A DNA stretch of 64,000 nt from positions 92,870 through 156,869 of the forward strand of contig VMFR01000002.1 of the NCBI GenBank assembly GCA_007376135.1, given 5' to 3'. The notes beneath the pieces are model-generated. The model searched no databases. It was not told the DNA's origin and saw only the letters and a list, made by a program, of their open reading frames with translations. The translations under genes and the position numbers were made by a program. Shown here one piece after another: positions 21,497 through 50,805 of the stretch. The DNA is from Parcubacteria group bacterium Gr01-1014_31 (lineage in GTDB: Bacteria; Patescibacteriota; Patescibacteriia; Buchananbacterales; GWA2-38-13). How positions within the stretch are numbered: the stretch's first letter is position 1; every line of letters starts with the position of its first letter.

Positions 21497-21526
21497 TAAA
21501 AAAACCGGCGCCAGCCGGTTTTTTTC
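21497..21526. terminator. bidirectional terminator between convergent DUF2079 gene and glycosyltransferase operon
   Basis: A8-CCGGCGCCAGCCGG-T7. Confidence 0.55.
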
Positions 21527-21536
21527 GTGTCGGAGT

Positions 21537-23153: not shown

Positions 23154-23160
23154 AGAAATA

Positions 23161-24801: not shown

Positions 24802-24871
24802 AGAAAATGGTGGGGTGTAAAACGTAAAGCGTGAAACCTGCAACGCAAATACACCGTACGCGTTCCACGTT

Positions 24872-28302: not shown

Positions 28303-28307
28303 ACGAT

Positions 28308-29069: not shown

Positions 29070-29072
29070 AGC

Positions 29073-30338: not shown

Positions 30339-30340
30339 AC

Positions 30341-31081
30341 TTATCCTTTGGCGGCGGGCGGATCTTGCCGCAGCTGGCGGCGCAAGCGCAGCACGTCCTT
30401 CAAGTAGGTGATGCTGAGAGAAAAAATATTGACCTTGCTCACGCGGCCAGGCGGCTCGTGCCAGCGCACCGGGATCTCTTTGATGCGGTACCCCGCCACC
30501 CCTGCCCGAACGACCAGCTCGGTATCAAAGAACCAGCCGCCGTGCCGTATCTGGGGCAGCAAGGTGTCGCGCACGCGGCGGCTGATGGCCTTGAAGCCGC
30601 ACGGAGCATCCTGCACGGTGATGGGTACCAGGCTCGCCAGCACCCAACGGTAGCCGCGCGACGCCGTCCGGCGCAACCAATCGCGCGCGACCACGGCGCC
30701 CGGCGCGTAGCGCGACCCGACCGCCACGTCGTACCCCTCATGGGCAACCGCCCCGACCACCGCCGGGAGCGCCGAGAGGTCCGTCGCCAGGTCGGAATCC
30801 ATGAACAGATACACATCCGCATCCACTGCGCGCCACCCCGCCGCGATGGCATTACCCTTCCCTCGTTGGGGCACGGCCTCATACCGCACCCGCGCGTCGG
30901 TCGCCGCCAGGCCTTTCACCTGCGCTGCCGTATCGTCGGCGGACCCGTTGTCGGCCACCACCAGCACCGTGTCCCAATCGGGCAGCGATGCGGCGGCTGC
31001 CGTCAACACGGCGCGGCTGTTGGCGATGATGATTGTCCCCTCATCCAGGGCCGGGATGACGATGGCCAATTTTTGCTTCAT
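30341..31081 (-). CDS. GT2-family glycosyltransferase (Dpm1-like)
   Basis: 246 aa. LAIVIPALDEG...VVADNGSADDT...DSDLATD. Confidence 0.75.
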   Translation of the reverse strand: MKQKLAIVIPALDEGTIIIANSRAVLTAAAASLPDWDTVLVVADNGSADDTAAQVKGLAATDARVRYEAVPQRGKGNAIAAGWRAVDADVYLFMDSDLATDLSALPAVVGAVAHEGYDVAVGSRYAPGAVVARDWLRRTASRGYRWVLASLVPITVQDAPCGFKAISRRVRDTLLPQIRHGGWFFDTELVVRAGVAGYRIKEIPVRWHEPPGRVSKVNIFSLSITYLKDVLRLRRQLRQDPPAAKG

Positions 31082-32685
31082 AGGGCGGGTACGGGCGACA
31101 CTTCAAAAATAGTAGCCTCGGGGTCGCGGTAGACTTCGCGGAAGCCCGGATTGCCGGCGACCAGCTTGCGCATGGACTCCTGCTCTTTGCCGACGAACAC
31201 GAACTGAGCGCCGAAGCGTTGAGCCACGATCTCGTACAGCCGAACGCGCTCACGGGCGGTGGTCACTCGTTCCCATTCACCATAGCGGACACGGTCGAAC
31301 CGGTACATGAATGTCGGGTCCAGGCCGACCAGGTAGCGGCTCTGGCTATTGTAGTACCACAACATCGGGAAATCGTCCCAGTCGCTGTGGAAGACCAGCG
31401 CATCGGGCGGCGTGTTGGCCCGCAGCCACGCCGAGGCCGCGGCAAACCGGGTCAGCGGGATGCCGTCGCGAAATGCGCCGCGCACGCTGGAAACGTCGCG
31501 CACCACCAGGTAGGGCACCATCAGCAGCGGCAGCACCACGGCCGCCAGGAACAATTTTTGCTCACGCAGGAACGCTTTCAATTCGTTCCAAAACGGCTGC
31601 AGCGGCTGGCCTGCGACGCAGCCACGCAGCGCATCGGCGGAAAAGAGGATGGAGATCGGCACGAGGTACTCCACATTGCGGCGCGACCGCAACGTCAAGG
31701 CGTAGAGCAGCGCCGTCGCCAGCAGCAGGAATCCCGTTCGCGGGGCTTGCCGCCGCCACGTCAGGACATAGAGCGTCAACCCCACGATCGCAACGAACGA
31801 GGCTAAGCTGGTGGCCGCCAGCAACTCCAGCGCGGGGTAGGGATACCACTCCCCGCCTACGCCGATGGTTTCCTGATAGTTGATGACGGCGATCTGCACG
31901 ATCTGATTCCAATAGAACTGGAGGTGGTAGGGAAAATACGGGTGCAGCAGCAGCGCCAGCAAGATGCCGCCCATGACCGCGCCCAAGCTCCTGATCTGCC
32001 GCCGGAGCGCAGCCCGCCGCTCCCCCGCGGGCGCGAGCCCAACCAGCGCGAAGGCGTACAACCCGGCCAGCACCACCATGAGCGGCCAGCCACCGTAGAG
32101 CCAGACGTAGAAAAAACTGGTTGCGGCCAGCCACCGCAGGCGCGCGCGCGTCAGCAGTATGAGCCAGACAAACAGCACCGCGAACGCGAGCGGCTGCGCT
32201 TTCGCGAGGTTGGCGCGGAACACGAACGGACTGGTGGCCAGTAGTAGCGCCGTTGCATAGCCGGCCCGGGGCACGCCCCAGGTCCGCAGCAGCGCGTAGA
32301 ACGCGGTCACCGCCGTGGCGAAGAACGTGACGGTCGCCAATTTCAGACCCAGCAGCGGCGGCAAGAGCCGCACCCACGGAATGAGCAGCACGTGGTAGAG
32401 GAATTGATGATCCGCAAAGCTGTCACGTAGTACCGTGAACTGCAGCCACGGGAACTGGGTGAAGATGCCGCGCTCCGAGATGAGGAGCGCCATCTTGGCG
32501 TGGTAGAAAGAATCCGGGTCGGCGAAGGTCGGCGTGGCCTGCACCCAGACGGACAAGAGTCCGGCAACGGTAAAAACCGTCAGGTACGCCAACATCGGCC
32601 GTCGCGCCAAGTGACGGGCGAATGCGTGCCGCAGCGCGGCGATGGCGGCAACCAACGGATGGCGGGCAACCCAGGCAAATGGCAT
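31078..32685 (-). CDS. polytopic membrane protein with C-terminal soluble domain, putative GT-C-type glycosyltransferase; first gene of the operon
   Basis: 535 aa. N-terminal multi-TM region with DPDSFYH in the first loop and a roughly 150-aa C-terminal extracytoplasmic domain. Overlaps the next gene by 4 nt. Confidence 0.4.
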   Translation of the reverse strand: MPFAWVARHPLVAAIAALRHAFARHLARRPMLAYLTVFTVAGLLSVWVQATPTFADPDSFYHAKMALLISERGIFTQFPWLQFTVLRDSFADHQFLYHVLLIPWVRLLPPLLGLKLATVTFFATAVTAFYALLRTWGVPRAGYATALLLATSPFVFRANLAKAQPLAFAVLFVWLILLTRARLRWLAATSFFYVWLYGGWPLMVVLAGLYAFALVGLAPAGERRAALRRQIRSLGAVMGGILLALLLHPYFPYHLQFYWNQIVQIAVINYQETIGVGGEWYPYPALELLAATSLASFVAIVGLTLYVLTWRRQAPRTGFLLLATALLYALTLRSRRNVEYLVPISILFSADALRGCVAGQPLQPFWNELKAFLREQKLFLAAVVLPLLMVPYLVVRDVSSVRGAFRDGIPLTRFAAASAWLRANTPPDALVFHSDWDDFPMLWYYNSQSRYLVGLDPTFMYRFDRVRYGEWERVTTARERVRLYEIVAQRFGAQFVFVGKEQESMRKLVAGNPGFREVYRDPEATIFEVSPVPAL

Positions 32686-34185: not shown

Positions 34186-35244
34186 ATGTCGTACCGCATC
34201 GCCTTGCTCGCCACGCCTTGGGAAGCGGTACCGCCCCCGAAGTACGGCGGCACGGAACTGATCGTCGCCAACCTCGCGGATGAACTCACCCGCCGCGGCC
34301 ATACCGTCACGGTGTTTGCCACCGGCGACTCGCGTCCCGCTGGCCGCCTGGCGGCGGTGTTCCCCCGCGCGCTCTACCGCGACGGCGTCCCCTGGAACGA
34401 CACGCTGCGCCCGCTGCAACACGTCGCTGCCTGTTTCACCCGCGCCCGCGAGTTCGACCTCATCCACAACCATGCCAACTACTTCGGCCTGCTGTTCGCG
34501 AACCTGGTGCCAACCCCGGTGGTCACCACCTACCATGGCGACTTTGTGACCGCGGAAAAGATCCCGGAAAAACGGCACCTGCTGGAGGCGTTCCGTCGCG
34601 CTCCGTTCGTTGCCATCAGCTGGCGCCAACGCGCCCTGGCAAAAACCCGCCTCAATTTCGTCGGTACCGTTCACAACGGCATCGCCATTGAACAGTTCCC
34701 TTTTTCGCCGCGGCCCGGCAACTACCTGTGCTGGCTAGGACGCATCACCGAAAAAAAAGGGATCCTTGAAGCCATCACGGTCGCCCGTCGGCTGCGCCTG
34801 CCGCTGAAGATCGGCGCCAAGATCGACCCGGTCGACCGCGCGTTCTTCAAACACCGCGTGGAGCGCCGCATCGACGGCAAACATATCCAATACCTGGGAG
34901 AGCTGGACCACCGCGGAAAAACCCGGCTGCTGAAAAGGGCGCTCGCGCTCTTGAACCCCATCACCTGGGAGGAACCATTCGGCCTGGTCATGGCGGAGGC
35001 GATGGCCTGCGGCACGCCGGTTATCGCCTTCCCCCGCGGCGCGGCTCCCGAGATCGTTGCCGATGGAGTGACGGGCTACCTGCCCACCACGGTGGACCGC
35101 ATGGTGGCCGCGGTCAAACGCATCCACCATATCCGGCGTAGCGCCTGCCGTGCCCGCGCAGCGCGATACTTCAGCCGGGAAGCGATGACTGACGGCTACG
35201 AGAAGATCTACGCGCGAGTACTGCGACGGGAAAAAGGCCGATAA
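34186..35244 (+). CDS. GT4-family glycosyltransferase (retaining, GT-B fold)
   Basis: 352 aa from MSYRIALLATPWEAVPPPKYGGTELIV. C-terminal EX7E-type region EEPFGLVMAEAMACGTPVIAF. Start placed at ATG 34186, just after the ruvC stop. Confidence 0.8.
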   Translation: MSYRIALLATPWEAVPPPKYGGTELIVANLADELTRRGHTVTVFATGDSRPAGRLAAVFPRALYRDGVPWNDTLRPLQHVAACFTRAREFDLIHNHANYFGLLFANLVPTPVVTTYHGDFVTAEKIPEKRHLLEAFRRAPFVAISWRQRALAKTRLNFVGTVHNGIAIEQFPFSPRPGNYLCWLGRITEKKGILEAITVARRLRLPLKIGAKIDPVDRAFFKHRVERRIDGKHIQYLGELDHRGKTRLLKRALALLNPITWEEPFGLVMAEAMACGTPVIAFPRGAAPEIVADGVTGYLPTTVDRMVAAVKRIHHIRRSACRARAARYFSREAMTDGYEKIYARVLRREKGR

Positions 35245-35291
35245 CTCAACACCCTGTTCCCCTCCGCCTAATTCCTATCTTTCACCGCGAT

Positions 35292-36509
35292 ATGCCCCAG
35301 CCGCTGAGAATACTATTTTTGCACCACTTCCCGTTGTGGGGCTGCGGCAGCGGCACGTTCGTGCGCAACCTCGCTATCCGATTGTCCGGCAAACAAGAGA
35401 TCGCCATCGCCTGCCCGGAAACCCGCACGGTCGAGGGCGTCAAACTCTACCCCATCAAGCTGCCGTTCTTCGCCTCGTTCACCGGCCATCCGGAACACCC
35501 GAACAGCAAACTCTATGCGGAGCTATCGCCCGGGGAGATCACGCAGCTGTACCGGGCGTTCCTGCACTACGCGGTGGACGCGGTGGAGAATTTCCGGCCC
35601 CACATCATCCACGCCAACCACGCCGGCGTGCTGACGTGGGCGGCGCGCTACCTCTACGCCATCTACGGCATCCCGTACCTGGTCACCATCCACGGCACCG
35701 ATCTGCACAACATCGACCTCGACCGCCGCTACTGGCACCTGTCGCGCGACGCCGTCAAAGCCGCGCGGCAGATCACGTGCGTGTCCGGCGATACGCGGGC
35801 ATGGTTCTACCGCATCTTCGGGGGCGAGGACAAGCTTCGCGCCAAGATCCGCACCATCCCCGCGGGCATCAACTTGGCCGATTACGACCGGACCCTGAGC
35901 ACCGACGACCTGGACGCCAAGTACAAACTGACCGGACGTCCGGTGGTCATGTTCGCCGGCAAGCTGACGCCCTACAAGGGAGTGCGCTACCTGGTCAAAG
36001 CAGCGCGCTGGATCAACGGCGAGGTGGTCATCATCGGCGATGGGCCGGAACTCCACACGCTCACGGACCTCGCGCGCGACCTGAAGGTCTCGAACGTGCG
36101 GTTCTTGGGTCACTTCGGAAAAAAGGATGACCTCTGGCTGCACAAATTCTATCAGCGGGCAGACGTGTTCGTGGCGCCGTCGGTCTGGGATGAGCCGCTG
36201 GGCATGGTCATCCTGGAAGCCATGGCCTACGGCACGCCGGTGGTGGTCACCCGCAAGGGCGGCATCCCGCTGGCGGTGAAAGACGGCGTCAACGGCCGCT
36301 TCATCAAGCCGCGCAACAGCCACGACATCGCCGACAAGGTCAATGCGCTCTTGGCCGACCCCGCGCGGCGGCGGCAACTGGGCGAACAGGCCCGGCAGGT
36401 GGTGGAGGAGAAATTCACCTGGGACAAGATCGCCGAGAAGTTCCTACAGATCTACCGGGCGCGGGCCGCGGGAGGCAACGGAAAGAACGGCAAAACCGAT
36501 CGCACCTAG
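35292..36509 (+). CDS. GT4-family glycosyltransferase
   Basis: 405 aa. DEPLGMVILEAMAYGTPVVVT and GT-B fold pattern. Distinct subfamily from its four neighbours. Confidence 0.8.
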   Translation: MPQPLRILFLHHFPLWGCGSGTFVRNLAIRLSGKQEIAIACPETRTVEGVKLYPIKLPFFASFTGHPEHPNSKLYAELSPGEITQLYRAFLHYAVDAVENFRPHIIHANHAGVLTWAARYLYAIYGIPYLVTIHGTDLHNIDLDRRYWHLSRDAVKAARQITCVSGDTRAWFYRIFGGEDKLRAKIRTIPAGINLADYDRTLSTDDLDAKYKLTGRPVVMFAGKLTPYKGVRYLVKAARWINGEVVIIGDGPELHTLTDLARDLKVSNVRFLGHFGKKDDLWLHKFYQRADVFVAPSVWDEPLGMVILEAMAYGTPVVVTRKGGIPLAVKDGVNGRFIKPRNSHDIADKVNALLADPARRRQLGEQARQVVEEKFTWDKIAEKFLQIYRARAAGGNGKNGKTDRT

Positions 36510-36598
36510 CCCGGACAACATTGGGGAGAAACGACGGCCGTCAAGGCCGTCTTTTTCGCGCCTTCGACCGGTAAATAATGGTATACTGAAGCCGTCCT

Positions 36599-37657
36599 AT
36601 GTCCCGCACGCGACGGCCCCGCATCGCAATTATCGCTCCATTCTTCCTGCCCATTCCGCCGCGGCGGCAAGGCGGTACGGAATGGATCGTTGCCCATCAG
36701 GCCGACGGCTTGGTGGACCGCGGCTATCCCGTCACCCTCCTGGCGGTCGCGGGATCCACCACGCGCGCCCGGCTCATTCCCGTCATTACGCGCGGCGTGA
36801 GCGACTACCCACTGCGGCTGGACTCCATGGAGGCGTCACGGAAATTACGGCTGGAAATGACGGCGCTTGGATTGGCCGCCGAGCACCTGCGCCAGAACCG
36901 CTTCGACCTGGTCTTCAACCATGCCCGCGGCGGCGAGCTGCTCTACCCGCTGTTGCGGCAGATGGGGGTGCCCATGGTCACCGTGCTGCACCTGCCGGTG
37001 TTCAGTGAAAACGCAAAATTCCTGGCCGGACAACGAGCGCCGCTGGTCTCTATCAGCAACCATGAACGGCGGGCCTTTCCGCGACTCAATTATGTCGCGA
37101 CCGTGTACAATGGTGTGAACACCAAAACGTTCTCCTTCAACGCCAAACCCCGCGATTACCTGCTGATGATGACCACCATCGGCGAACATAAAAATACGCT
37201 CGATGGGATCGTGGCGGCAAAACGCGCGCGCCGAAAGCTGATCATCGCCGGCAAGATCCGCGACCATGCCTACTTTGCCGCCAAGATCAAACCGCGCCTG
37301 GACGGCCGAACGGTGCGCTACCTCGGCGAGGTCGGGCTCAAGGAAAAGATCCGGCTCTACCGCAACGCCAGTGCACTCCTGTTCCCGGTGGTCTGGGAAG
37401 AACCATTCGGCTTGGTGATGATCGAATCACTCTCCTGCGGCACGCCGGTTGTAGGCTACCGGAGCGGCGCCGTGCCGGAGGTTATCCGTCACGGCATCAC
37501 GGGTTTCATCACGCCGAAAACTCCGGCTGCGTTGGCCCAAGCCATCCGCCGCCTTCCCGAGATCGACCGCGCCGCGTGCCGGCACGACGCGGTACGACGT
37601 TTTTCGCTCGACCGCATGCTCGACGGCTACGAAAAGGTCATCCATCATCTCATTTGA
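36599..37657 (+). CDS. GT4-family glycosyltransferase
   Basis: 352 aa. APFFLPIPPRRQGGTEWIV N-terminus and EEPFGLVMIESLSCGTPVVGY. Confidence 0.8.
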   Translation: MSRTRRPRIAIIAPFFLPIPPRRQGGTEWIVAHQADGLVDRGYPVTLLAVAGSTTRARLIPVITRGVSDYPLRLDSMEASRKLRLEMTALGLAAEHLRQNRFDLVFNHARGGELLYPLLRQMGVPMVTVLHLPVFSENAKFLAGQRAPLVSISNHERRAFPRLNYVATVYNGVNTKTFSFNAKPRDYLLMMTTIGEHKNTLDGIVAAKRARRKLIIAGKIRDHAYFAAKIKPRLDGRTVRYLGEVGLKEKIRLYRNASALLFPVVWEEPFGLVMIESLSCGTPVVGYRSGAVPEVIRHGITGFITPKTPAALAQAIRRLPEIDRAACRHDAVRRFSLDRMLDGYEKVIHHLI

Positions 37658-37659
37658 AT

Positions 37660-38733
37660 ATGAAGAGATTGAAGATCGCGCAGATCGCGCCCCTCTGGAT
37701 CCGAGTGCCGCCCGAAAAGTACGGCGGCACGGAGCTCATCGTCTACCACCTGTGCGAAGAATTGGTTGCCCGCGGCCACAAGGTGACGCTCTTTGCCTCG
37801 GGCAATTCGAAAACTTCGGCGAAATTGGTGCCGGGGTTCCGCACCAATTTATTGGCCGCCGGCATCCCATGGACCAGCCAGCTGGAAACGCTGCGCCATC
37901 TCGCGCAAGCCTACGCGCGCAGCGGCGAATTCGACCTGGTGCACTCGCACGTCGACCTGTATGAGACGTTCTTCGCGCGCTTCTCCCGCGCGCCAGTGGT
38001 GCACACCATCCACAACCCGCTGTATTCGTCGCGCAAAGACGACCTGCGGCTGCAGATCCTCACGAACAGCCGGTGGTCGCATTATGTGACCATCTCCAAT
38101 TCGCAGTATCGGCTCGGCTCGGCTCACCTCAACCGCGCGGGCACCGTGTACAACGGCATCGATATTTCGAAGTTCCGATATATCAAAAAAGGCGGCGACC
38201 ACTTCATCTGGATCGCGCGCGTTGACCCCTACAAAGGTATTGAGAACGCAATCACGGCCTGCGAACGGGCTCACGTCAAGTTGACCCTGGCTGGCCGGCT
38301 GGATGCGACGCGGCGGCAGTACTTTCGCCAGCGCATCCGCCCGCACCTCAGGCACGGTATCCGTTGGGAAGGCGAGATCGGCGGCAGCCAGAAGAACGCG
38401 TTCTTCGGCTCGGCTCAGGCGCTGCTCTACCCGATCGAGTGGCACGAACCGTTCGGCCTGGTCATGGTGGAAGCCATGGCCTGCGGCACGCCGGTCATCG
38501 CCTACGACCGCGGCTCGGTGCGGGAGCTGGTCAAAGACGGCGTGACCGGGTTTGTGGTGAACACCATCCCGGAAATGGTACGGGCCATCAAAAAGGTGGG
38601 CGCCATCGACCGCGCCGCCTGCCGCGCCTGGGTGGAGAAAAAATTCACGGTGCAAACGATGGTGGACGGCTATGAACGAGTATACGAACGGATCTTAAGT
38701 CAACGTACGAAAGGTAAAGGGCGGAATTCTTGA
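37660..38733 (+). CDS. GT4-family glycosyltransferase
   Basis: 357 aa from MKRLKIAQIAPLWIRVPPEKYGGTELIV (ATG 37660, 3 nt after the previous stop). C-terminal roughly 45 aa identical to the GT4 at 39732..40865. Confidence 0.8.
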   Translation: MKRLKIAQIAPLWIRVPPEKYGGTELIVYHLCEELVARGHKVTLFASGNSKTSAKLVPGFRTNLLAAGIPWTSQLETLRHLAQAYARSGEFDLVHSHVDLYETFFARFSRAPVVHTIHNPLYSSRKDDLRLQILTNSRWSHYVTISNSQYRLGSAHLNRAGTVYNGIDISKFRYIKKGGDHFIWIARVDPYKGIENAITACERAHVKLTLAGRLDATRRQYFRQRIRPHLRHGIRWEGEIGGSQKNAFFGSAQALLYPIEWHEPFGLVMVEAMACGTPVIAYDRGSVRELVKDGVTGFVVNTIPEMVRAIKKVGAIDRAACRAWVEKKFTVQTMVDGYERVYERILSQRTKGKGRNS

Positions 38734-39720
38734 ATGAGTATGGTACCCCCCGGCAACATCCTTATCCCGCGCATCGGCGAAAAGATCGCCGCCGTGCTGC
38801 GGCGGCACAAACTGCGCCCCGAGGTCAGTCCGAAAAAATTCTTGGCGCGCGTCAAAACCAGCAAGCACCGCTACTTCACTCCGGCCCGAACGCCCGAGGG
38901 AACGACGGTGGCATTCTATGCGCGGCTCCACGCCAACCCCGACGCGCAACGGAAATTCCTGACCGAAGTCAGCGTCCTGCGACGGCTCAACCGGATGCCG
39001 CAGCCGTTCGCCCGCTCGGCGCCGCGGCTGCTGTCGGCCGGACGGGAATCCTCATTCGAATGGTTCACCCGCGAGCACATCAACGGCAACCCGCTGGGCC
39101 ACAGCCGCCACTTATCCGGACGGCTGGCTGCCTCCACGGTGGCGCAGCTGGCCTCCTCCATCGTTTCCATCGGCCAACTGCCGCCCAAGGAGCTGCGGGT
39201 CAAACTGCAGCGGTTCAATCCCGATAACTACCGCATCGACCGCCAGTGCTACGGGCTGGCCCAAGCGGCAGCGGTACCGGCGACCACCTGCCGCGGCGTC
39301 GGCCGCCTGGTTTCGAACAATCGCCAGCTACTGCATCGCTGCAACCGGGTGGTCGCGCACGGCGACCTGAATTTAGGCAACATCCTGGTGGACGGCGGGA
39401 TCGTGCGCATCGTGGATTGGGAACTGGCTCAGCTCAACAACTTGGCCTACGACCTGGGGTATTTGTGGGTTCATCTCTGGGAAGCTCCCAAACGCTTCCG
39501 CCAGCTCCTGCTGCAATCATTTGTCCGGCAGTTGCCGTCGCCGCAGCGCGCCCTCTTCCGCCAGCTCCTGCCGGTGGTGGTCGCGTACCTGGCGATCGGC
39601 GGCATCCCCTACCGGAGGAGCGCGCATGAACGCCACGCCGAACAGGAACGGCGGCGGCGCTACCATGTTCGGTTGCTGCAGCAATGCCTGCACGGCTTTT
39701 CCGCCCTGCGGAACGCCTAA
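38734..39720 (+). CDS. aminoglycoside-phosphotransferase (APH)-fold kinase, possible sugar (anomeric) kinase
   Basis: 328 aa. Catalytic loop HGDLNLGNILV and IVDWE (Brenner and DxD motifs of the APH/choline-kinase fold). Embedded in a glycosyltransferase/sugar-nucleotide cluster. Confidence 0.55.
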   Translation: MSMVPPGNILIPRIGEKIAAVLRRHKLRPEVSPKKFLARVKTSKHRYFTPARTPEGTTVAFYARLHANPDAQRKFLTEVSVLRRLNRMPQPFARSAPRLLSAGRESSFEWFTREHINGNPLGHSRHLSGRLAASTVAQLASSIVSIGQLPPKELRVKLQRFNPDNYRIDRQCYGLAQAAAVPATTCRGVGRLVSNNRQLLHRCNRVVAHGDLNLGNILVDGGIVRIVDWELAQLNNLAYDLGYLWVHLWEAPKRFRQLLLQSFVRQLPSPQRALFRQLLPVVVAYLAIGGIPYRRSAHERHAEQERRRRYHVRLLQQCLHGFSALRNA

Positions 39721-39731
39721 CGCCAACGCCT

Positions 39732-40865
39732 ATGTCGAAACGATTGCGCATCGCGATGTTCTGCACCAACGAGTGGCAAACGCCGCCGCCCCAGAACACG
39801 TTCTACGCGCCGTTGTGGATCGCCCAGGCCATCGCCGAAGGATTGCATCGCCGCGGCCACCGCATAACGTACTTCGGCGCCCGCGGCTCCACGCTGCGCG
39901 CCCCGCTGGCGCACCTGAACATGCCCGCCATCAAAACCAACCGTCAACTCAAACCGTTCCTCGCTCGGCAGAATGAAACGGTGGTGAACTTCTACGAACA
40001 GTTGATGATCGCCGAGATCTACCGGCGTGCCAACCGCGGCGATTTCGACCTCATCCACATCCACCCCTACCGGCGGGCCATCCAGTTCGCGCCCCTCACG
40101 CAAACGCCCACGGTCATTACCCTGCACGATCCGATCGAGGACTTCCGCCGCTACATGCTGCAGCAGACGGTGACGCAACGGAACACGCACCTCATCTCCA
40201 TCAGCAACGCCCAGCGGAAACCCGCTCCGCGGCTCAACTTCGCGGCCACGGTCTACAACGGCGTACGCCTCGCCGACTACCCCTTCAACCCCGCGCCGGG
40301 CAACCACCTCGTCGCGGCTGGACGCTTCGTACCGGAAAAAGGCATCGACGTGGCCGTCCAGGTGGCGGCGCTCGCCAAAACTCCGCTGCGGCTGGCGGGC
40401 GGACAGGCCGAGGGGCACTACTGGGACGCTTACATCAAACCCTACGTGCGGCCGCGCGGCCGAACCCGCTACGTGGGGATGCTGAAGTCCCGGGAGATGG
40501 GCAAATTCTACGGCTCCGGTCGAGCACTTCTCTACCCGCTGCGCTGGGAGGAACCGTTCGGCCTGGTGATGGTGGAGGCTATGGCCTGCGGCACGCCGGT
40601 CATCGCGTTCCCGCACGGCTCGGTGCGGGAGCTGGTCAAAGACGGCGTGACCGGGTTTGTGGTGCACACCATCCCGGAAATGGTACGGGCCATCAAAAAG
40701 GTGGGCGCCATCGACCGCGCCGCCTGCCGCGCCTGGGTGGAGAAAAAATTCAGCACGGAAAAAATGGTCGATGGATACGAAAATGCCTTCTACGACATTC
40801 TCACGCAAGAACGACGGAGTGCAAAACGCAAAATGCAAAACGCAAAACAACAACGCAAAAAATAA
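39732..40865 (+). CDS. GT4-family glycosyltransferase
   Basis: 377 aa from MSKRLRIAMFCT. EEPFGLVMVEAMACGTPVIAFPHGSVRELVKDGVTGFVVHTIPEMVRAIKKVGAIDRAACRAWVEKKF. Lys-rich tail. Confidence 0.8.
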   Translation: MSKRLRIAMFCTNEWQTPPPQNTFYAPLWIAQAIAEGLHRRGHRITYFGARGSTLRAPLAHLNMPAIKTNRQLKPFLARQNETVVNFYEQLMIAEIYRRANRGDFDLIHIHPYRRAIQFAPLTQTPTVITLHDPIEDFRRYMLQQTVTQRNTHLISISNAQRKPAPRLNFAATVYNGVRLADYPFNPAPGNHLVAAGRFVPEKGIDVAVQVAALAKTPLRLAGGQAEGHYWDAYIKPYVRPRGRTRYVGMLKSREMGKFYGSGRALLYPLRWEEPFGLVMVEAMACGTPVIAFPHGSVRELVKDGVTGFVVHTIPEMVRAIKKVGAIDRAACRAWVEKKFSTEKMVDGYENAFYDILTQERRSAKRKMQNAKQQRKK

Positions 40866-40911
40866 AAGATTTCTTTTACGCTTTTCGCTTTGCATTTTTC
40901 GCTGACTTTCT

Positions 40912-42774
40912 ATGCAGCTTGAAGACGGCCTGTGGATCGACGACGGATTTTACGTCGACTTCGACGAGCAGGGCCAGTTCCGCATCATCGGCCCCAATAA
41001 CCACCTCTACTGTGGGCTGGTGGACATTCCGCGCCACCGTCTGCGGGTCCGCAGCGTGCGCTCGCCGCAGCCCGGGACCGTCGTGGTCAGCGGCAGTTTC
41101 GTCGGACCCGCCGTCAACCTCTACTACCCGGCGATGGACGACATCCGCACCATGCGGACGTTCGCCGGCAGCGACTCATTCCTGGCGGCGCGTCAGAAAT
41201 CCTTCGACCGCCTGGTACCCCACCACATGCACCGCACGCGGCGGAACGGCCAGACCGTGCTGGAATTCTCCCGCCACTACCATGAACGGCTGTCCTACCG
41301 GTGCAGTTTTTCCTTTCCCTCGGCCGTCGCGGTCAAAAAGATCACCCGGCCGTTCGCGGGATTCCGCGTCAGCAGCGCTACGGCCCGCGCCGCCATCCCG
41401 TTCACCCTGACGGCGCAAACTAACGATCTGGCCGCCCACCACCCGTTGAAGCGCTACTTCCTCCAGGATGCCGGCGACCTGCCGTTCGAATTGTTCGGCA
41501 AGCGCCAGCACATTCTGCGCGCGTTCTGGGAACGCACGGCGGTGGAGATCGCTCACCTCATCGCCTGGGGAAAAACGTCCGGCGACCGCTTCGGCACGAT
41601 CTTTCCCCGCGACTGGATGGAATCGGCCGACCTGGGCGTGCATGACCTGACGCCGGAAGCGCGCGCCCACATGTATACGGTCAGCCTCCGCCACGTCAAC
41701 ACCAAAGGCGAGGGATGGCACGAGGATGTCGTGGGCGAGTACCGCTACGAGTACCAGCTCTCGGGCCGCGACATCTACGACCGGCACATGATCGACATCG
41801 AACCCCACTACCTGATCGGATTGCAACAACTGCCGCAGGAGATCCTCCTTGACCCCCAGGTGCGTACGGCCTTGCAGCGGGTCGCCCGCTATGTCGTGGC
41901 CCAGGCGCGGTCAAAGGAATTCATCACCTTTAAAAAATTGCCCCCGCGCGACCGTAAAACCGGCAACCAGTACTATGTGAGCGGCAACTGGCGCGACAGC
42001 GAGTGGGCGTTCAAAAAGATCGGCCAAGACATCGCGCCCTTCGATGTCAACGCGGTCTTTTACCCCAAGGCGCTCGCCGTCCTGAAGGAATTCCAGCGGC
42101 CGCTGGGCGTGAAAACCGCTGACCTGGACGAGCTGATCTCCCGCTGGCACGCCAAGGAGCAGTATTTCCGTTTCACCAACAAAGACGGCACGAGCGCGTA
42201 TGCGCTGGCCGTCTATGGCATCCACGGCCGCGGGGCGGCGGTACGCTGCAACCAGCTGAAAGTCAACCATCTGGACGAGGCCTACCGCTACACCTACGCC
42301 ACCGCCACGCGTGACCAGGTCGTCAGCTTCTGTAAGCGCCTGACCGACCCGGCCTACTTCTTCACCAAGTACGGTCCGCTCCTGGTGGCGAACGTCAACG
42401 ACCACGGCTACACCAACCGCGAGTACCATGGTCAGGTCATCTGGATGAAACAGGCCGCCTACGCCATCTTGGGCTTGAGCAAGCACCTCAAGATCGCCGT
42501 GGTGGAACGATGGCCCGCCGATGTGCAACGCTTGATCAAGGAGGCAATGCTGCAGGTCAGCATCGGGGTCATTTCCGCCTGCGTACAGCTCAACGCCATC
42601 CCCGAACTCCATTGGGTGGATGGAGGCCAGCCGAAATTCTTCCCCATCTCGTCCAGCAAAGTTCAGCTTTGGTCGGCGGTGGGCGTGCGGCGCATCATCC
42701 GCAAGTATCTGGAGCTGCAAACCGATCCGAATTACCGTACAATAAAGACGGCTGTGACCTGGCCCAAACTATGA
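40912..42774 (+). CDS. hypothetical protein (large soluble; possibly a glycoside hydrolase-like enzyme)
   Basis: 620 aa, no TM or signal. Location between GT4 genes and galT-like/ROK genes suggests carbohydrate metabolism. No motif confidently recognised. Confidence 0.3.
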   Translation: MQLEDGLWIDDGFYVDFDEQGQFRIIGPNNHLYCGLVDIPRHRLRVRSVRSPQPGTVVVSGSFVGPAVNLYYPAMDDIRTMRTFAGSDSFLAARQKSFDRLVPHHMHRTRRNGQTVLEFSRHYHERLSYRCSFSFPSAVAVKKITRPFAGFRVSSATARAAIPFTLTAQTNDLAAHHPLKRYFLQDAGDLPFELFGKRQHILRAFWERTAVEIAHLIAWGKTSGDRFGTIFPRDWMESADLGVHDLTPEARAHMYTVSLRHVNTKGEGWHEDVVGEYRYEYQLSGRDIYDRHMIDIEPHYLIGLQQLPQEILLDPQVRTALQRVARYVVAQARSKEFITFKKLPPRDRKTGNQYYVSGNWRDSEWAFKKIGQDIAPFDVNAVFYPKALAVLKEFQRPLGVKTADLDELISRWHAKEQYFRFTNKDGTSAYALAVYGIHGRGAAVRCNQLKVNHLDEAYRYTYATATRDQVVSFCKRLTDPAYFFTKYGPLLVANVNDHGYTNREYHGQVIWMKQAAYAILGLSKHLKIAVVERWPADVQRLIKEAMLQVSIGVISACVQLNAIPELHWVDGGQPKFFPISSSKVQLWSAVGVRRIIRKYLELQTDPNYRTIKTAVTWPKL

Positions 42775-43745
42775 ACCGCCACCACTACACGTACGACCAC
42801 CCGCGAGCGCGCCGCGGCAAGATCCGCGACGCCGAATTGCGCAAGGACTACATCCAGGACAAGTACGTCATCATCGCGCCGCGCCGCGGCAACCGGCCGC
42901 ATGAACTTGAGCGCGTCGTCCGCGCGCGGTCGGCGGTCCGCAAAACCTGCGCGTTCTGCCCGGGATTAGTGGAGCAACAGCGGCAGATCATGACCGTGGA
43001 GGCCAAGCGCGGCTGGATGATCAAGGTCATCACCAATAAATTCCCCGCGGTCACTCTGGATAACCCCCGGGCCTACGGCATGCAGGAGGTCGTGGTAGAA
43101 ACACCCGACCACCGGCCGGAACTGGAAGAGCTGCCGACGGACCACATCGCAACGCTGTTTGCCGTCTACGCCGAGCGCACCAAGCAAATCTCCGAGAACC
43201 CGCGCATCGAGTACATCATTATTTTCAAGAACCAAGGGGGGACGGCCGGCGCGTCCATCCTGCACGCCCACTCGCAGATCTTTGCCACCGACTTTTTGCC
43301 GCCGCATCTGCTGGATAAGTCGCAGGTGGTCCAAGCCTACAAGCTCAAGACCGGCCGCTGCGTCTACTGCGACGTCATCCGCCGCGAACGGAAGTCCCCG
43401 CGCATGGTCTACGATGACGGCATCGCCGTGGCGTTCACGCCCTATGCGTCGCTCTACAACTACGAACTGTGGGTCATGCCAGCGCGGCACATCGACAACA
43501 TCACCCAGATGAACGCCGAGGAGCGGCGGTCCTTCGCCCACGTCTTCAAACGCGCGCTCAGAAAGATCACGCAGCTGGGGCTGCCATACAACTACTACTT
43601 CCACCAGGTGGTCCACGATGAGGACCAGCACCTCTACTTCAAGATCACCCCGCGCGGCTCGGTGTGGGCCGGCGTTGAAATTGGTTCGGGGGTCATCATC
43701 AACCCGGTCCCGCCCGAGGAGGCGGCCGCGTACTATCGAAAATAG
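42771..43745 (+). CDS. GalT-like (HIT-superfamily) hexose-1-phosphate nucleotidyltransferase
   Basis: 324 aa from MNRHHYTYDHP (ATGA overlap with the previous stop). His-x-His active-site motif LHAHSQIF and Cys pairs (CAFCPG, CVYCD) resemble the zinc site of galactose-1-phosphate uridylyltransferase. Confidence 0.6.
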   Translation: MNRHHYTYDHPRARRGKIRDAELRKDYIQDKYVIIAPRRGNRPHELERVVRARSAVRKTCAFCPGLVEQQRQIMTVEAKRGWMIKVITNKFPAVTLDNPRAYGMQEVVVETPDHRPELEELPTDHIATLFAVYAERTKQISENPRIEYIIIFKNQGGTAGASILHAHSQIFATDFLPPHLLDKSQVVQAYKLKTGRCVYCDVIRRERKSPRMVYDDGIAVAFTPYASLYNYELWVMPARHIDNITQMNAEERRSFAHVFKRALRKITQLGLPYNYYFHQVVHDEDQHLYFKITPRGSVWAGVEIGSGVIINPVPPEEAAAYYRK

Positions 43746-43867
43746 TTCCGGCGGACCACGACGCGTCCGGCTCATGCCGGACGCGTTTTTTATTGTATAA
43801 TAGGAGCACTCCACCGCACCCCCTTGTCTGCGGTGGTACCCCCGGGGTACTATCCGGCAATCATCAT

Positions 43868-44755
43868 ATGCCCAACTCTCACATCGGCGTTGACGTCGGC
43901 GGCACCAAGATTGCGGCCGGCATCGTGCGCGGCAGCCACGCGGTTCGCGTCACGACCATCCCCACGCCAAAAACCGGCCGGCGGGAGGTAGTCGCCGCGA
44001 TCGTCCAGCTGGTCAAAACCCTGGATGGCCCGCGCTCAACCCGCGTGGGTATCGGCATTGCCGGCGCGGTGAACGCGGCAAAAGGGATCGTGTACTCCAG
44101 TCCGAACCTGCCGCCGGATTTCAAGAACGTACCGCTGGCACGATTGGTAGCGCGCGCCGTGCGACGTCCGACCAGGATCGAGAATGACGCCAAATGTTTC
44201 GCATTGGCGGAAGCGACGCTGGGTGCCGGGCGCGGCAAGCGCATTGTTGCCGGCTTCACGCTGGGATCCGGCATCGGCTTTGGCATCGTCATGGACGGGA
44301 AAATTTTGCACGGCCGCGGCGGTATTGCCGGAGAATTGGGCCACACCACCGTCGTGGAAGATGGCCTGCCCTGCAGCTGCGGGCAGCGCGGCCACCTGGA
44401 AAGCTACGCCTCGGGACGGAGCATGACGCGCCTCTACCGGCGGCTGACCGGCAAAACGGTCAACTCATTCGAGCTGGAACGGCGCGCCAAAGACCACGAG
44501 GCGGCGGCGCGACGAGTGGTCGCGTACGGCGCCGAGATCCTGGCCATCGGCCTGGCCAACGCCATGACCACCTTCAACCCTGATATCATCGTGCTCGGAG
44601 GCGGCCTGAGCCGGGTACCGATCTACTGGCGCCCCGCCGCACGGCGCGCGTCACAACTGGTTCCCTACCGCCAGTTCCTCCCCACCCCGATCGTCAAGGC
44701 AAAGTTTGGCTCCCAAGCCGGCTTGATCGGCGCAGCGCTGGTGGCCAACACCTAG
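43868..44755 (+). CDS. ROK-family sugar kinase (glucokinase-like)
   Basis: 295 aa from MPNSHIGVDVGGTKIAAGIV. Zinc motif HTTVVEDGLPCSCGQRGHLE typical of ROK kinases. Confidence 0.75.
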   Translation: MPNSHIGVDVGGTKIAAGIVRGSHAVRVTTIPTPKTGRREVVAAIVQLVKTLDGPRSTRVGIGIAGAVNAAKGIVYSSPNLPPDFKNVPLARLVARAVRRPTRIENDAKCFALAEATLGAGRGKRIVAGFTLGSGIGFGIVMDGKILHGRGGIAGELGHTTVVEDGLPCSCGQRGHLESYASGRSMTRLYRRLTGKTVNSFELERRAKDHEAAARRVVAYGAEILAIGLANAMTTFNPDIIVLGGGLSRVPIYWRPAARRASQLVPYRQFLPTPIVKAKFGSQAGLIGAALVANT

Positions 44756-48080: not shown

Positions 48081-49268
48081 TTACTGCGGGCGATCTTTTT
48101 CCAGCACCACCAGCCGCCGCAAAGCGCACCACCGGCCCACCACGCTCGCGCACGCGTCATCAGCCGCTGACAATGCGGGCACCAAGACCGACGGCACCAA
48201 CGCGGGATAGGAAAACCCGCCGGTCAGCGGGTAGAGCAAACACGCGAGGTACTGGCCGTGGACCAGGTGGAGCTGCGGCAGCTGCGCCAATACCGCCGCG
48301 CGGTACTTGGTGAACAGCAGCGTGGGCAGCGCTTGGTTGGCGTACTCGCCGGGCAGGACAGGGAGGGCCGCCTCTTCGGCCGGCGTGAGCGGGGGCGTGG
48401 CTCCCATCTCCACGGGTTCCGCGTGGGTCAAACGATACACAAGAAATGACCAAGGGGTGATCCATGGTTCCAGCAGCACCAAACGGCCGCCGGGGGAAAG
48501 CACCCGTTGGGCTTCGCGTAGAAAACGCAACGGCCGCCGCAGGTGGTGCAGCATATCGATGCCCACAATGTTGTCAAATGCGCCGTCGTCGAACGGCAAC
48601 GCTTCCGCATCGGCCACCACATCCACCCAAGGGTTGGGGTGCACGTCGGTGGCGACCACGTCCGGCTTGAACGCCTTGAAATTGCCGATCCCGCAACCAA
48701 CCTCCAGCGTCCGGCCGGCAATGAGTTGCCGGGAGATCCGACGGTACCAGCCGGCGTACACCGCCCGGAGCGCCGGTTTACGCCGCCAGATCGCGATGTT
48801 CTCGGCCAGATGGGCAGCCGCGTAAGTGGGATCCTCGCGGGGCGGGGCTACCGTTACAGCAAACTCTCGCGCCTGCCGTTCGTCCTGCGCCAACTGCTCC
48901 CGCAACGCCGCCGAGCTGGGGAATGAACGCGTAGCCCGCAGCCGCCGCTCCACTCGTACGCTCAGCTCTTTCCCCTGCAACGCACCGTCATATCCCAAGA
49001 GATGCACCTCGAAGACCGGCACGGTCTCGCCGAACGTCGCCGCCGGCCCCCAATGCGCGAGCATTAACCGCCAAGGCTGGCTGGACACGCGCGCCCAGCC
49101 GCAATAGACGCCCCACGGCATGTCGGCGAGAGCCTCGGGTTGCCCGAGATTTGCCGTCGGCATCCCAAGACCCTTCCCCCGGCCGCGCCCGGGAACGACG
49201 CGCCCATGAAGTTGAAGTGGCAGCTGCATATACTGCACCATTGTAGGGGCCAGTCCTGGTGGTGGCAA
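48081..49268 (-). CDS. fusion protein: riboflavin kinase domain + class I SAM-dependent methyltransferase
   Basis: N-terminal GRVVPGRGRGKGLGMPTANL...GVYCGWARV...FEVHLLGYDG matches the RibF C-terminal flavokinase domain. C-terminal LEVGCGIGNF...DAEALPFDDGAFDNIVGIDMLHHL is a methyltransf_11/25-type motif set. Exact start (MPPP, MVQY or MQLP) is uncertain. Confidence 0.6.
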   Translation of the reverse strand: MPPPGLAPTMVQYMQLPLQLHGRVVPGRGRGKGLGMPTANLGQPEALADMPWGVYCGWARVSSQPWRLMLAHWGPAATFGETVPVFEVHLLGYDGALQGKELSVRVERRLRATRSFPSSAALREQLAQDERQAREFAVTVAPPREDPTYAAAHLAENIAIWRRKPALRAVYAGWYRRISRQLIAGRTLEVGCGIGNFKAFKPDVVATDVHPNPWVDVVADAEALPFDDGAFDNIVGIDMLHHLRRPLRFLREAQRVLSPGGRLVLLEPWITPWSFLVYRLTHAEPVEMGATPPLTPAEEAALPVLPGEYANQALPTLLFTKYRAAVLAQLPQLHLVHGQYLACLLYPLTGGFSYPALVPSVLVPALSAADDACASVVGRWCALRRLVVLEKDRPQ

Positions 49269-50460: not shown

Positions 50461-50805
50461 ACGAGGGATAACAGGGGTTTGATAACGGTGATAATTATAT
50501 TGATACTAGGTAGTAATAGTAGTAGGCGGCAGGGATAAGTGGACAAGTGGGAGATTCGACTGTGTGAGTTCGTTTACGGCGAGTTACGATGGGATAAGTC
50601 CGGGATACACGGCGTGGGTTGGCCGTGGATGGATTGGGTATGAATGTCGCGGCGGCGGCTGACGCCGCGTCGGCAGTGCATAGGTCAGTGGACAGTTCCC
50701 AGGTTATCCAACTGAGAGGCGGGGCTTTTACCCCACCTCTTCCCCACGCTGTCCCCGCATCTTCCCCAGTTTCCGGGCCCATGCCGTTGGCACGGCAACG
50801 GCTCG
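50461..50805. other. dnaA-dnaN intergenic region with AT-rich stretch and repeated GGATAA/GATAAC DnaA-box cores (candidate oriC segment)
   Basis: gGGATAACa, tTGATAACg, gGGATAAGt and gGGATAAGt within 140 bp, plus AT-rich GATAATTATATTGATACTAGGTAGTAATAGTAG. No full 9-mer consensus box. Confidence 0.35.

Follow-up and report, generated by a model that had tools for sequence, protein, structure and literature searches.

A conserved Patescibacteria gene block that may make and break a soluble alpha-gluco-oligosaccharide

What is the function of a block of nine genes lodged between ruvC and the gene for a class A PBP in a Patescibacteria genome? Within the window, by which we mean the whole 64-kb stretch of DNA analysed, the nine open reading frames all lie on the plus strand, separated by short gaps or overlaps. 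Each was found where the initial annotation had placed it, with Pfam and NCBIfam domain calls in agreement, except that the start given for the fourth paralogous GT4, 39684, was corrected to 39732. The block is laid out as follows.

Flank: RuvC (5.7e-46)
34186..35244, plus strand: GSSa, with Pfam Glyco_transf_4 and Glycos_transf_1 domains and 45% identity to TeGSS
35292..36509, plus strand: a distinct GT4, GlgM/SPS/BshA-like
36533..36551, plus strand: terminator-like hairpin separating GSSb from the GlgM-like GT4, with a 7-bp stem (6 GC pairs) and then a T run; suggestive only, the total of such sites in the region not being above chance
36599..37657, plus strand: GSSb, a TeGSS-family GT4 with 38% identity to TeGSS and altered catalytic positions
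37657..38733, plus strand: GSSc, a TeGSS-family GT4 whose start overlaps the GSSb stop
38734..39720, plus strand: orphan APH-fold small-molecule kinase (Pfam APH, 2e-14) with HGDLNLGN and IVDWE motifs
39732..40865, plus strand: GSSd, a divergent TeGSS-family GT4 with 35% identity to TeGSS
40912..42774, plus strand: U620, a predicted glycosidase (or phosphorylase) combining a beta-sandwich at the N terminus with an (alpha/alpha)6 barrel
42771..43745, plus strand: GalT-like HIT nucleotidyltransferase, most similar to ADP-glucose phosphorylase; the U620 stop and its ATG overlap
43760..43787, plus strand: strong terminator-like hairpin separating ROK from the GalT-like gene, with a 12-bp stem (9 GC pairs) and then TTTTATTGTA
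43868..44755, plus strand: ROK sugar kinase, glucokinase-like (Pfam ROK, 1e-64); its start may be 43793
Flank: PBP with Transgly and Transpeptidase domains

No transmembrane segment or signal peptide was detected in any of the nine proteins, the PBP control having one, and all nine products are, on this sequence-based prediction, soluble and cytoplasmic. The same array was observed in about 50 species-level genomes of Patescibacteria, the very small CPR bacteria, and the gene block is more than a chance arrangement. Non-redundant related loci in which over 4 kb of sequence precedes the 620-aa gene numbered 33; at least one GSS-like GT4 was present in 29 of them and at least two in 25, the kinase in 19 and the GalT-like gene in 12, and four of the 33 carried U620 with no GSS-like gene inside 10 kb. 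Downstream sequence was available for 42 loci, with ROK present in 20 and the PBP in 24. The earlier description of a self-contained sugar-transfer cluster was borne out, and the cluster is cytoplasmic. The galU gene reported nearby also lies in the window, at 11943, as a GalU-like gene whose TIGR01099 (galU) score of 310.8 bits falls narrowly short of the cutoff, 326.8.

All four paralogous GT4s are members of the TeGSS family and align with TeGSS over their full length at 35-45% identity, a level of sequence similarity that fixes neither their acceptor nor their linkage. TeGSS, a UDP-glucose:sucrose alpha-1,2-glucosyltransferase, synthesises the glucosylsucroses of cyanobacteria; its substrates are UDP-Glc and sucrose, and its gene adjoins SPS in T. 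elongatus (PMC9909042). A phmmer search of the PDB with GSSc returned TeGSS (7FG9/8X3Q) at 1.2e-79 in a full-length match, followed by BGluT (5ZER) at 3e-31. All five TeGSS catalytic residues (W10, Y18, R179, K184 and E256) are retained in GSSa and in GSSc. Y18 is missing from GSSb and GSSd, and R179 from GSSb as well: in GSSb, TeGSS positions 10, 18 and 179 are occupied by F, Q and T, and in GSSd positions 10 and 18 by E and F. The TeGSS mutants Y18F and R179A are nearly inactive (PMC9909042); that the changes seen in GSSb and GSSd cripple TeGSS counts against the make-and-break cycle proposed below. Furthermore, the motif YGGTE(L/W)IV, which had been ascribed to all four paralogs, was exact in the first and third, while the second reads QGGTEW and the fourth FYAPLW, with no YGG. 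Six residues from the list for the TeGSS acceptor cavity are mostly not conserved, which likewise counts against the cycle.

The four GSS-type paralogs are, by sequence comparison, ancient. TeGSS nests within the CPR paralogs in a neighbour-joining tree, and the four orthogroups are older than lineages whose U620 proteins share only 44-50% identity. The GSSa orthogroup is conserved in the related loci L005, L009, L014, L030 and L048, and that of GSSb is conserved too. The 3′ 276 nt of GSSd (40506-40781) are 87% identical to positions 38401-38676 of GSSc.

The best PDB matches of the distinct GT4 were the alpha-maltose-1-phosphate synthase GlgM (6TVP, 1.4e-26) and TeSPS (6KIH, 1.3e-24). It scored 139.7 bits on TIGR02149, below the cutoff of 302, and had strong orthologs only in L010, L014, L030 and L048. 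Enzymes of the GlgM/SPS/BshA-like class use small soluble, mostly phosphorylated acceptors, and this GT4 is a candidate primer-forming enzyme.

Because the four paralogs are closely related to glucosylsucrose synthase, an enzyme with a soluble acceptor, the best reading of the product is a compatible-solute glycoside or storage oligosaccharide, one of the options that the initial annotation had listed. Another of its options, a cell-wall glycopolymer, is unlikely. A further reading is cell-envelope glycosylation, with the GT4s adding sugars to a wall polymer, a lipid or a surface protein. This would account for the conserved adjacency of PBP1A, which the cluster adjoins in the 24 of 42 loci noted above, and GT4s are common in envelope pathways, with EpsE, TuaC and Agl16 among the NCBIfam matches here. 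However, the block contains no transmembrane segment or signal peptide, no flippase, polyprenyl-phosphate GT or export gene, and the closest characterised homologs take soluble acceptors. Moreover, such a pathway would leave the cytoplasmic glycosidase and the sugar kinase without a role, and the PBP is part of a conserved YebC-RuvC...PBP-DnaN-DnaA backbone. We therefore regard envelope glycosylation as highly improbable.

U620 had been listed as a large unknown soluble protein, and its glycosidase fold had been overlooked. No sequence match was found in Pfam, NCBIfam or the PDB, profile search included, and its more than 230 homologs (43-95% identity) are every one labelled hypothetical. Its AF2 model (pLDDT 91, pTM 0.92) matched most closely, by Foldseek, the archaeal amylo-alpha-1,6-glucosidase 7VMA (7.6e-13, TM 0.61), followed by GH63, GH94 and glucosylglycerate hydrolase, and D, E, W and R residues are invariant at many positions. 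U620 is thus predicted, from its modelled fold, to be a glycosidase of an undescribed family, and it could be a phosphorylase instead of a hydrolase. The substrate of 7VMA is glycogen stubs, not alpha-1,2 bonds. The usual neighbour of U620 is the ROK kinase (180.8 bits on TIGR00744, the ROK glucokinase family, cutoff 260; NagK, 179), whose gene in 20 of 42 loci lies directly 3′ of either U620 or the GalT-like gene. Given the glycosidase fold and this neighbour, part of the cluster would be degradative.

The 7VMA match also suits glycogen-like alpha-1,4/alpha-1,6-glucan metabolism, in which the GT4s would be uncharacterised glucan synthases or initiators, U620 the amylo-alpha-1,6-glucosidase of indirect debranching, and ROK would recycle the glucose. 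A GH57 of the 4-alpha-glucanotransferase type lies immediately before U620 in 13 related loci, and a bona fide GlgA, adjoining GH57, occurs fused to the same kinase (L001, L019 and L020), its GlgA portion in L001 scoring 515 bits on TIGR02095, above the cutoff. Unexplained clusters of GT4, GH133 and GH57 genes are also known in archaea, where a GT4 has been proposed to serve as the glycogen synthase (PMC11046441, sections 3.4.1 and 3.4.4). Nevertheless, U620 does not resemble GDE_C/GH133 in sequence, and the GSS paralogs are much nearer to TeGSS (1e-79) than to any glucan synthase, with GlgM at 8e-9 and GlgA at about 1e-5. In addition, GlgA, GH57, branching enzyme and phosphorylase are all absent from the 64-kb window, and a homopolymer needs no four to six conserved GT paralogs. 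Such a glucan pathway is, in our view, unlikely.

The remaining two enzymes had been assigned to a Leloir-like salvage route, in which an APH-fold, NahK-type anomeric sugar-1-kinase would supply a GalT-like enzyme for exchange onto UDP from UDP-glucose, yielding NDP-sugars for the GT4s. The APH fold of the kinase stands: its AF2 model (pLDDT 92.7) gave MTR kinase 2PU8 as best Foldseek match (2.4e-8, TM 0.57-0.61), which favours the route in being an anomeric sugar kinase, followed by APH(3′) and macrolide/corramycin kinases. However, NahK and maltokinase were absent from the top 50 fold matches, and the best sequence matches were weak (6.6e-6) and to macrolide phosphotransferases; the fold matches pointed to no firm clade, and the kinase stands as an orphan APH-fold clade. 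Its HGD...N and DWE motifs are conserved across all loci.

The GalT-like protein carries CAFC, ETPDH, HAHSQ and CVYC, and the intact HxHxQ motif and zinc-binding Cys motifs likewise suit salvage. It grouped with GalT and ADP-glucose phosphorylase, none of its 33 PDB matches being named as an Ap4A phosphorylase, the alternative affiliation that had been raised. The matches were led by 1Z84 (At5g18200, 1.1e-40), 6K5Z (1.1e-31) and E. coli GalT (6e-16), and its score on TIGR00209 was 90.6 bits, below the cutoff of 102.1. We take its nearest solved relative, the Arabidopsis protein 1Z84, to be an ADP-glucose phosphorylase with little uridylyltransferase activity, which argues against salvage. Kinase and GalT-like gene occur together in 11 loci, and a GalU-like gene is nearby, as salvage would have it; yet the kinase stands without the GalT-like gene in 8 of 19 kinase-carrying loci and the reverse holds in 1, and the characterised GSS homolog needs UDP-glucose alone. 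With an orphan kinase that often lacks a GalT-like partner, and a partner nearest to ADP-glucose phosphorylase, nothing specific points to the NahK-type route, which we consider quite unlikely.

Collectively, we favour a cycle in which the locus makes and breaks down a soluble alpha-gluco-oligosaccharide in the cytoplasm, as carbon reserve and/or compatible solute, with a probability of about 0.5. The analysis itself shows family membership, fold, solubility and synteny. In the cycle that we infer, in its substrates, linkage types and direction of flux alike, GalU at 11943 would supply UDP-glucose, and the GlgM/SPS-like GT4 would build a small primer glycoside, whose acceptor is probably a phosphorylated sugar. 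The four TeGSS-type paralogs would then add glucose units sequentially, much as TeGSS adds alpha-1,2-glucose onto sucrose. In breakdown, U620 would trim glucose from the product, and the released glucose would enter glycolysis after phosphorylation by ROK. The roles of the other two enzymes are guesses: the GalT-like enzyme might interconvert hexose-1-phosphate and NDP-glucose, as an ADP-glucose phosphorylase or uridylyltransferase, and the kinase might act on a pathway sugar, either the primer or disaccharide in the manner of maltokinase or a free hexose at C1.

Some related loci carry an MshA/SPS-like GT4 with an SPP/S6PP-like HAD phosphatase and a GH100 invertase-like protein, and some have trehalase as an accessory gene. 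The soluble-glucoside reading draws on these accessory genes and on the GH57 and GlgA described above, all of which act on soluble glucosides or alpha-glucans. The core sugar may accordingly vary by lineage, being sucrose-like with the SPP-like and invertase-like genes, trehalose with trehalase, and an alpha-1,4 chain with the GlgA-kinase fusion and GH57. None of these pointers, be it an SPP-like, invertase-like, trehalase or GH57 gene, occurs in the 64-kb window itself, which counts against the proposed cycle.

Several known systems resemble parts of this locus. The entry to the GlgE pathway (the GT4 GlgM and the APH-fold maltokinase Mak/Pep2) likewise combines a GlgM-like GT4 and an APH-fold kinase in one sugar cluster, and the fusion of the kinase to an alpha-glucan enzyme in some lineages recalls Mak-TreS; unlike that pathway, the locus has no GlgE or TreS, its GT4 falls well under the GlgM cutoff, and its kinase shows no specific similarity to Mak. 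With At5g18200 (1Z84, the best sequence match at 1e-40) and class I GalT, the GalT-like protein shares the HIT fold, HxHxQ nucleophile motif and CxxC zinc site, but it is under the NCBIfam galT cutoff and sits in a GT4 + glycosidase operon. The bifidobacterial GNB/LNB module lnpABCD comprises a phosphorylase, NahK, GalT and GalE; it similarly joins a disaccharide-cleaving enzyme to an APH-fold kinase and a GalT-type transferase, and the salvage scheme resembles its NahK + GalT part, whereas the present locus has no GH112 or GalE, a kinase that is not NahK-like, and a predominance of synthetic GTs.

U620 equals the archaeal amylo-alpha-1,6-glucosidase (GH133, 7VMA) in length (620 aa) and in its beta-sandwich and (alpha/alpha)6 architecture (TM 0.61), but is only 14% identical in the structural alignment, with no GDE_C Pfam match and no profile match to any PDB chain. 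Some related loci pair U620 with GH57 and GlgA, as in the archaeal GT4 + GH133 + GH57 glycogen clusters (PMC11046441), although U620 mainly stands beside TeGSS-type GT4s rather than a glycogen synthase. The remaining parallel is cyanobacterial glucosylsucrose (sucroglucan) synthesis by TeSPS (tll1590) and TeGSS (tll1591), with alr1000 in Nostoc (PMC9909042). Both systems use soluble enzymes of the same GT4 subfamily (35-45% identity, full length), GSSa and GSSc keep W10, Y18, R179, K184 and E256, an SPS/GlgM-like GT4 adjoins, and related CPR loci have SPP-like and GH100 invertase-like genes. In contrast, the CPR host is non-photosynthetic and its window has no evident sucrose genes, two of its paralogs lack Y18, one of these also R179, and the acceptor-cavity residues differ. 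Where the cyanobacterial system has one GSS, CPR loci have four to six ancient paralogs, accompanied by a glycosidase of a new family, ROK, a GalT-like enzyme and an orphan kinase.

Between 32.9 and 47.6 kb the + strand holds, in this order, YebC and RuvC, then nine genes related to sugars, then a class A penicillin-binding protein (PBP), with intergenic distances of about -4 to 120 bp across the run from YebC to the PBP. By its homologs the host belongs to the Patescibacteria (CPR), and its GC content is about 62%. Pfam and NCBIfam recognised five GT4 glycosyltransferases, an APH-fold kinase, a GalT-like HIT protein and a ROK kinase, bearing out the gene calls of the initial annotation, and upheld the identities of the flanking RuvC, YebC and PBP (Transgly and Transpeptidase domains). 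Four of the GT4s are paralogs, here called GSSa to GSSd after the cyanobacterial glucosylsucrose synthase TeGSS (PDB 7FG9/8X3Q), and U620 denotes a 620-aa predicted glycosidase or phosphorylase.

34186-35244, + strand: GSSa, GT4 of the TeGSS family
35292-36509, + strand: fifth GT4, GlgM-like
36533-36551, intergenic: terminator-like hairpin 3' of the GlgM-like gene
36599-37657, + strand: GSSb, GT4 of the TeGSS family
37657-38733, + strand: GSSc, GT4 of the TeGSS family
38734-39720, + strand: APH-fold kinase
39732-40865, + strand: GSSd, GT4 of the TeGSS family
40912-42774, + strand: U620
42771-43745, + strand: GalT-like HIT protein
43760-43787, intergenic: strong terminator-like hairpin 3' of the GalT-like gene
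43868-44755, + strand: ROK sugar kinase
49315-50460, - strand: dnaN, about 5 kb downstream of the cluster
50806-52197, - strand: dnaA, about 5 kb downstream of the cluster

The two flanking hairpins suggest that GSSb, GSSc, the kinase, GSSd, U620 and the GalT-like gene form a single tightly coupled unit, in a region where terminator-like sites as a whole do not exceed chance and a promoter scan likewise returned no more sites than expected by chance. A transmembrane segment or signal peptide was predicted for none of the nine cluster proteins (0/9), whereas the PBP control was positive. An envelope role is unlikely, and we rejected a cell-wall polymer, one of the products initially proposed, as the proteins are all soluble and export and lipid-carrier genes are absent. 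Given the position of dnaN and dnaA and a cumulative GC skew that is lowest near 48-50 kb, this cluster adjoins a probable replication origin, as it does in a related locus from another genome (L003); the stretch at about 52.2-53.4 kb was grouped with the dnaN/dnaA stretch (49315-52197) in this origin-proximal observation.

Several features lie elsewhere in the window. At 11943 lies a GalU-like gene, which scores 310.8 bits where the cutoff is 326.8; directly 3' of it, 12806-14869 encodes an extracellular solute-binding protein of 460 aa (SBP_bac_1/8) and a protein of 223 aa in which a type IV secretion pilin domain was recognised. The stretch just upstream of YebC (19512-32685) is taken up by a series of large membrane proteins, encoded mostly on the - strand and including DUF2079, DUF6541 and several without a family, together with a PMT-like glycosyltransferase (25659-26990) and a GT2 (30341-31081); it resembles an envelope-glycosylation block in its own right. 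The + strand AT skew is strongly positive, up to 0.38, at 22-28 kb, overlapping this block. The first 2 kb have a GC content of 46.8% against about 62% elsewhere, 1994-3682 (- strand) encodes a three-domain multicopper oxidase, and a 395-aa ORF at 48081-49268 (- strand) joins an N-terminal riboflavin kinase (Flavokinase) to a C-terminal class I methyltransferase, an unusual fusion.

The four paralogs are 35-45% identical to TeGSS. GSSc matched 7FG9/8X3Q over its full length (1.2e-79, residues 5-350), against 3e-31 for the next family, BGluT. GSSa (45% identity) and GSSc (41%) keep all of W10, Y18, R179, K184 and E256; GSSb (38%) carries F, Q and T at TeGSS positions 10, 18 and 179, and GSSd (35%), which lacks the YGG motif, has E in place of W10 and F in place of Y18. 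The N-terminal signature by which the initial annotation had united the four is exact in only two of them. In TeGSS itself, the Y18F and R179A mutants have almost no activity, and its gene adjoins the sucrose-phosphate synthase gene tll1590 (PMC9909042). The TeGSS cavity residues Y70, E74, Y97, R117, T119 and N122 are mostly changed in the paralogs. Full-length similarity assigns them to the TeGSS/alpha-1,2-glucosyltransferase subfamily of GT4, in which TeGSS itself converts UDP-glucose and sucrose to alpha-1,2-glucosylsucrose. In a neighbour-joining tree built from 90 members of the family, without support values and hence indicative only, four orthogroups were resolved with one window paralog in each, and TeGSS branched within the CPR groups, not external to them. 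Over 276 nt at their 3' ends (38401-38676 and 40506-40781), GSSc and GSSd share 87% DNA identity, against only about 45% identity between the whole proteins, a tract that looks like recent gene conversion between paralogs.

The fifth GT4 fell under all NCBIfam cutoffs, including that of the GlgM family, to which it does not belong by score (TIGR02149, 139.7 bits against 302.4); its best PDB matches were GlgM (1.4e-26) and TeSPS (1.3e-24). Enzymes of the GlgM, SPS, MshA and BshA class use small, soluble, mostly phosphorylated acceptors.

Homologs of U620 number more than 230, share 43-95% identity with it, are without exception annotated as hypothetical and come nearly all from Patescibacteria; dozens of D, E, W, R and H positions are invariant, among them D225, D234, E271, E276, D455, E456 and E565. 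The AlphaFold model, computed on 35 sequences (pLDDT 91, pTM 0.92), has a beta-sandwich at its N-terminus (about residues 1-170) followed by an (alpha/alpha)6 barrel, the fold of GH133-type enzymes. Its best Foldseek match was an archaeal amylo-alpha-1,6-glucosidase, likewise of 620 aa (7VMA, 7.6e-13, TM 0.61), followed in order by GH63 YgjK and glucosidase I, GH94 phosphorylases, a glucosylglycerate hydrolase and a GH65-type phosphorylase. By sequence, U620 matched nothing in Pfam, NCBIfam, or phmmer and profile searches of the PDB, and thus falls outside GH133 (Pfam GDE_C/TIGR01561). A profile search of 1.84 billion representatives recovered about 40 family clusters and then only distant proteins of 650-850 aa; ten of these, when scanned, gave no glycosidase-family Pfam match, one carrying a Carb_bind domain only. 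Kinship with a GH100/GDE_C-like neighbour family was rejected (hhalign probability 0.6%). Since no sequence method ties U620 to its fold matches, we regard it as a glycosidase-fold enzyme of an undescribed family, which the model predicts to be a hydrolase or phosphorylase.

The kinase has invariant HGDLNLGN and IVDWE motifs, a Pfam APH match (2e-14) and a confident AlphaFold2 model (pLDDT 92.7), and shows the HxDxxxxN loop, Mg-binding D and bilobal architecture of the APH/eukaryotic-like kinase fold. Foldseek gave probability 1.00 to many APH-fold kinases, with matches spread evenly over MTR kinase (the best, 2.4e-8), APH(3'), macrolide, amicoumacin and corramycin kinases, so that the firm clustering with antibiotic kinases that would have spoken against a sugar kinase did not appear. 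Profile comparison with the PDB yielded only weak catalytic-loop matches, the best to a macrolide 2'-phosphotransferase (6.6e-6). NahK was found neither among the phmmer and profile PDB matches nor in the top 50 Foldseek matches, and maltokinase (Mak/Pep2) in none of these or in NCBIfam; the NahK-type placement first proposed has no specific likeness in sequence or fold behind it beyond the APH fold. Homologs retrieved by word-indexed searching were confined to 24-28 close relatives from CPR bacteria, and none of them added a further fusion partner.

The GalT-like protein retains the CxxC motif of the zinc site (CAFC), ETPDH and the HxHxQ nucleophile motif (HAHSQ) and matches both the N- and C-terminal Pfam GalP_UDP_transf domains, features that place it in the GalT/ADP-glucose phosphorylase group (HIT branch III). 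Its match to Arabidopsis At5g18200 (1Z84), a protein characterised as an ADP-glucose phosphorylase, reached 1.1e-40 over residues 20-323, compared with about 1e-31 for the archaeal, GalT-named 6K5Z and 6e-16 for E. coli GalT, and it scored under the curated galT cutoffs (TIGR00209, 90.6 vs 102.1; PRK11720, 114.7 vs 448). No chain in its PDB match list bears the name Ap4A phosphorylase, and the grouping with such enzymes that would have undercut a sugar role was thus not seen. The ROK domain was matched at 1e-64 over residues 31-319, with 180.8 against a cutoff of 260 for TIGR00744 and a nearly equal score for NagK (179).

We then compared related loci, 50 of them from a pattern scan in which each GTDB species was represented by one genome and the others from three further look-ups, with all ORFs classified by phmmer. 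The recurring order is YebC, RuvC, an optional GlgM-like gene, two to six GSS genes, the kinase, a further GSS gene, U620 with the GalT-like gene optionally on either side, ROK, PBP and DnaN-DnaA. Of the 33 loci whose sequence extends more than 4 kb 5' of U620, 29 carried at least one GSS-like gene (two or more in 25), 19 the kinase and 12 the GalT-like gene. Kinase and GalT-like gene occurred together in 11, the kinase alone in eight and the GalT-like gene alone in one, and obligate coupling of the two was accordingly rejected. The salvage route originally suggested, in which the kinase would pass sugar phosphate to the GalT-like enzyme, may operate as a sub-module, though nothing specific speaks for it. 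ROK was present in 20 and PBP in 24 of the 42 loci with downstream sequence. Clustering of the unassigned ORFs revealed lineage-specific accessory genes, none of them present in the window. In three loci the kinase forms the C-terminal domain of an 821-aa protein, whose N-terminal 500 residues in L001 score 515 bits on TIGR02095 (glgA), above cutoff.

13 loci, directly before U620: GH57 of the 4-alpha-glucanotransferase type
L003, L032, L034, L037, L038, L054: S6PP-like HAD phosphatase
L032, L034, L038: 480-aa protein, best PDB matches GH100 alkaline/neutral invertases (4e-12)
L034, L035, L037, L052: MshA/SPS-like GT4
L017, L031, L041: GH37 trehalase
L005, L010: two family-less proteins of 421 and 374 aa
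L001 3997-6462, L019 1713-4208, L020 1575-4100: GlgA-kinase fusion, adjoining GH57 and U620

The family-less pair (L005 973-2238 and 8889-10013; L010 4301-5566 and 8868-9983) consists of conserved proteins without a Pfam family; the 421-aa member has a faint GH15-like 'oligosaccharide amylase' match and the 374-aa member lies directly 5' of U620. L003 7844-9766 (- strand) encodes another conserved protein without a Pfam family, of 640 aa. Some loci (L005, L009, L012, L016, L030 and others) lie on contigs with deposited names such as 'Thermoplasmata archaeon', 'uncultured Gammaproteobacteria' or 'Saccharibacteria'; the probable cause is mis-binning or mislabelling of the MAGs, not true occurrence outside Patescibacteria.

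The fusion is the strongest functional clue for the kinase and links it to alpha-glucan synthesis. Glycogen-like metabolism with GT4-type synthases, the main rival explanation, takes its support from the 7VMA fold match of U620, GH57 and GlgA in related loci, and the unexplained archaeal clusters of GT4, GH133 and GH57 genes; against it, the GT4s are far nearer TeGSS than any glucan synthase, and glycogen genes are absent from the window, which contains no SPP-like, GH100-like, GH57, trehalase or GT5 gene. The constant core of the loci is the GSS-type transferases with U620, and the variable part is an enzyme set for a small core sugar. We favour a model of elongation and trimming because it fits this division: GSS-type transferases would add glucosyl units to a lineage-specific soluble core, which may be sucrose-like, trehalose or an alpha-1,4 chain, U620 would take them off, and ROK would capture the glucose. 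A further-reaching reading is tentative, with a probability of about 0.3: an ancient and undescribed cytoplasmic glucoside cycle common to many Patescibacteria, combining a radiation of GSS-type enzymes, U620 as a new glycoside hydrolase or phosphorylase family and a new sugar-kinase clade, in some lineages fused to glycogen synthase. Its product would be a gluco-oligosaccharide of alpha-1,2 type, distinct from glycogen and built on a core that varies with the lineage, and would be the main carbon reserve or osmoprotectant of these bacteria with reduced genomes.

A substantial part of bacterial diversity belongs to the CPR/Patescibacteria, whose physiology has mostly been deduced from what their genomes lack; a conserved, origin-proximal block for making and recycling soluble glucosides would, if true, be a rare positive statement about CPR storage or stress survival. 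It would also define a new glycosidase family from U620, with its unannotated members and confident model, and a new sugar-kinase clade for which the GlgA fusion is a ready functional clue. The searchable literature yielded no description of the CPR cluster, the U620 family, the GlgA-kinase fusion or a sucroglucan hydrolase. We rate the locus as a sucroglucan-type transferase system to which a new glycosidase family has been added along with an orphan kinase; such metabolism has not been described for this phylum. The TeGSS family would gain a biological context beyond cyanobacteria, and the locus may bear on the open archaeal question of what role GT4 genes play in glucan clusters.
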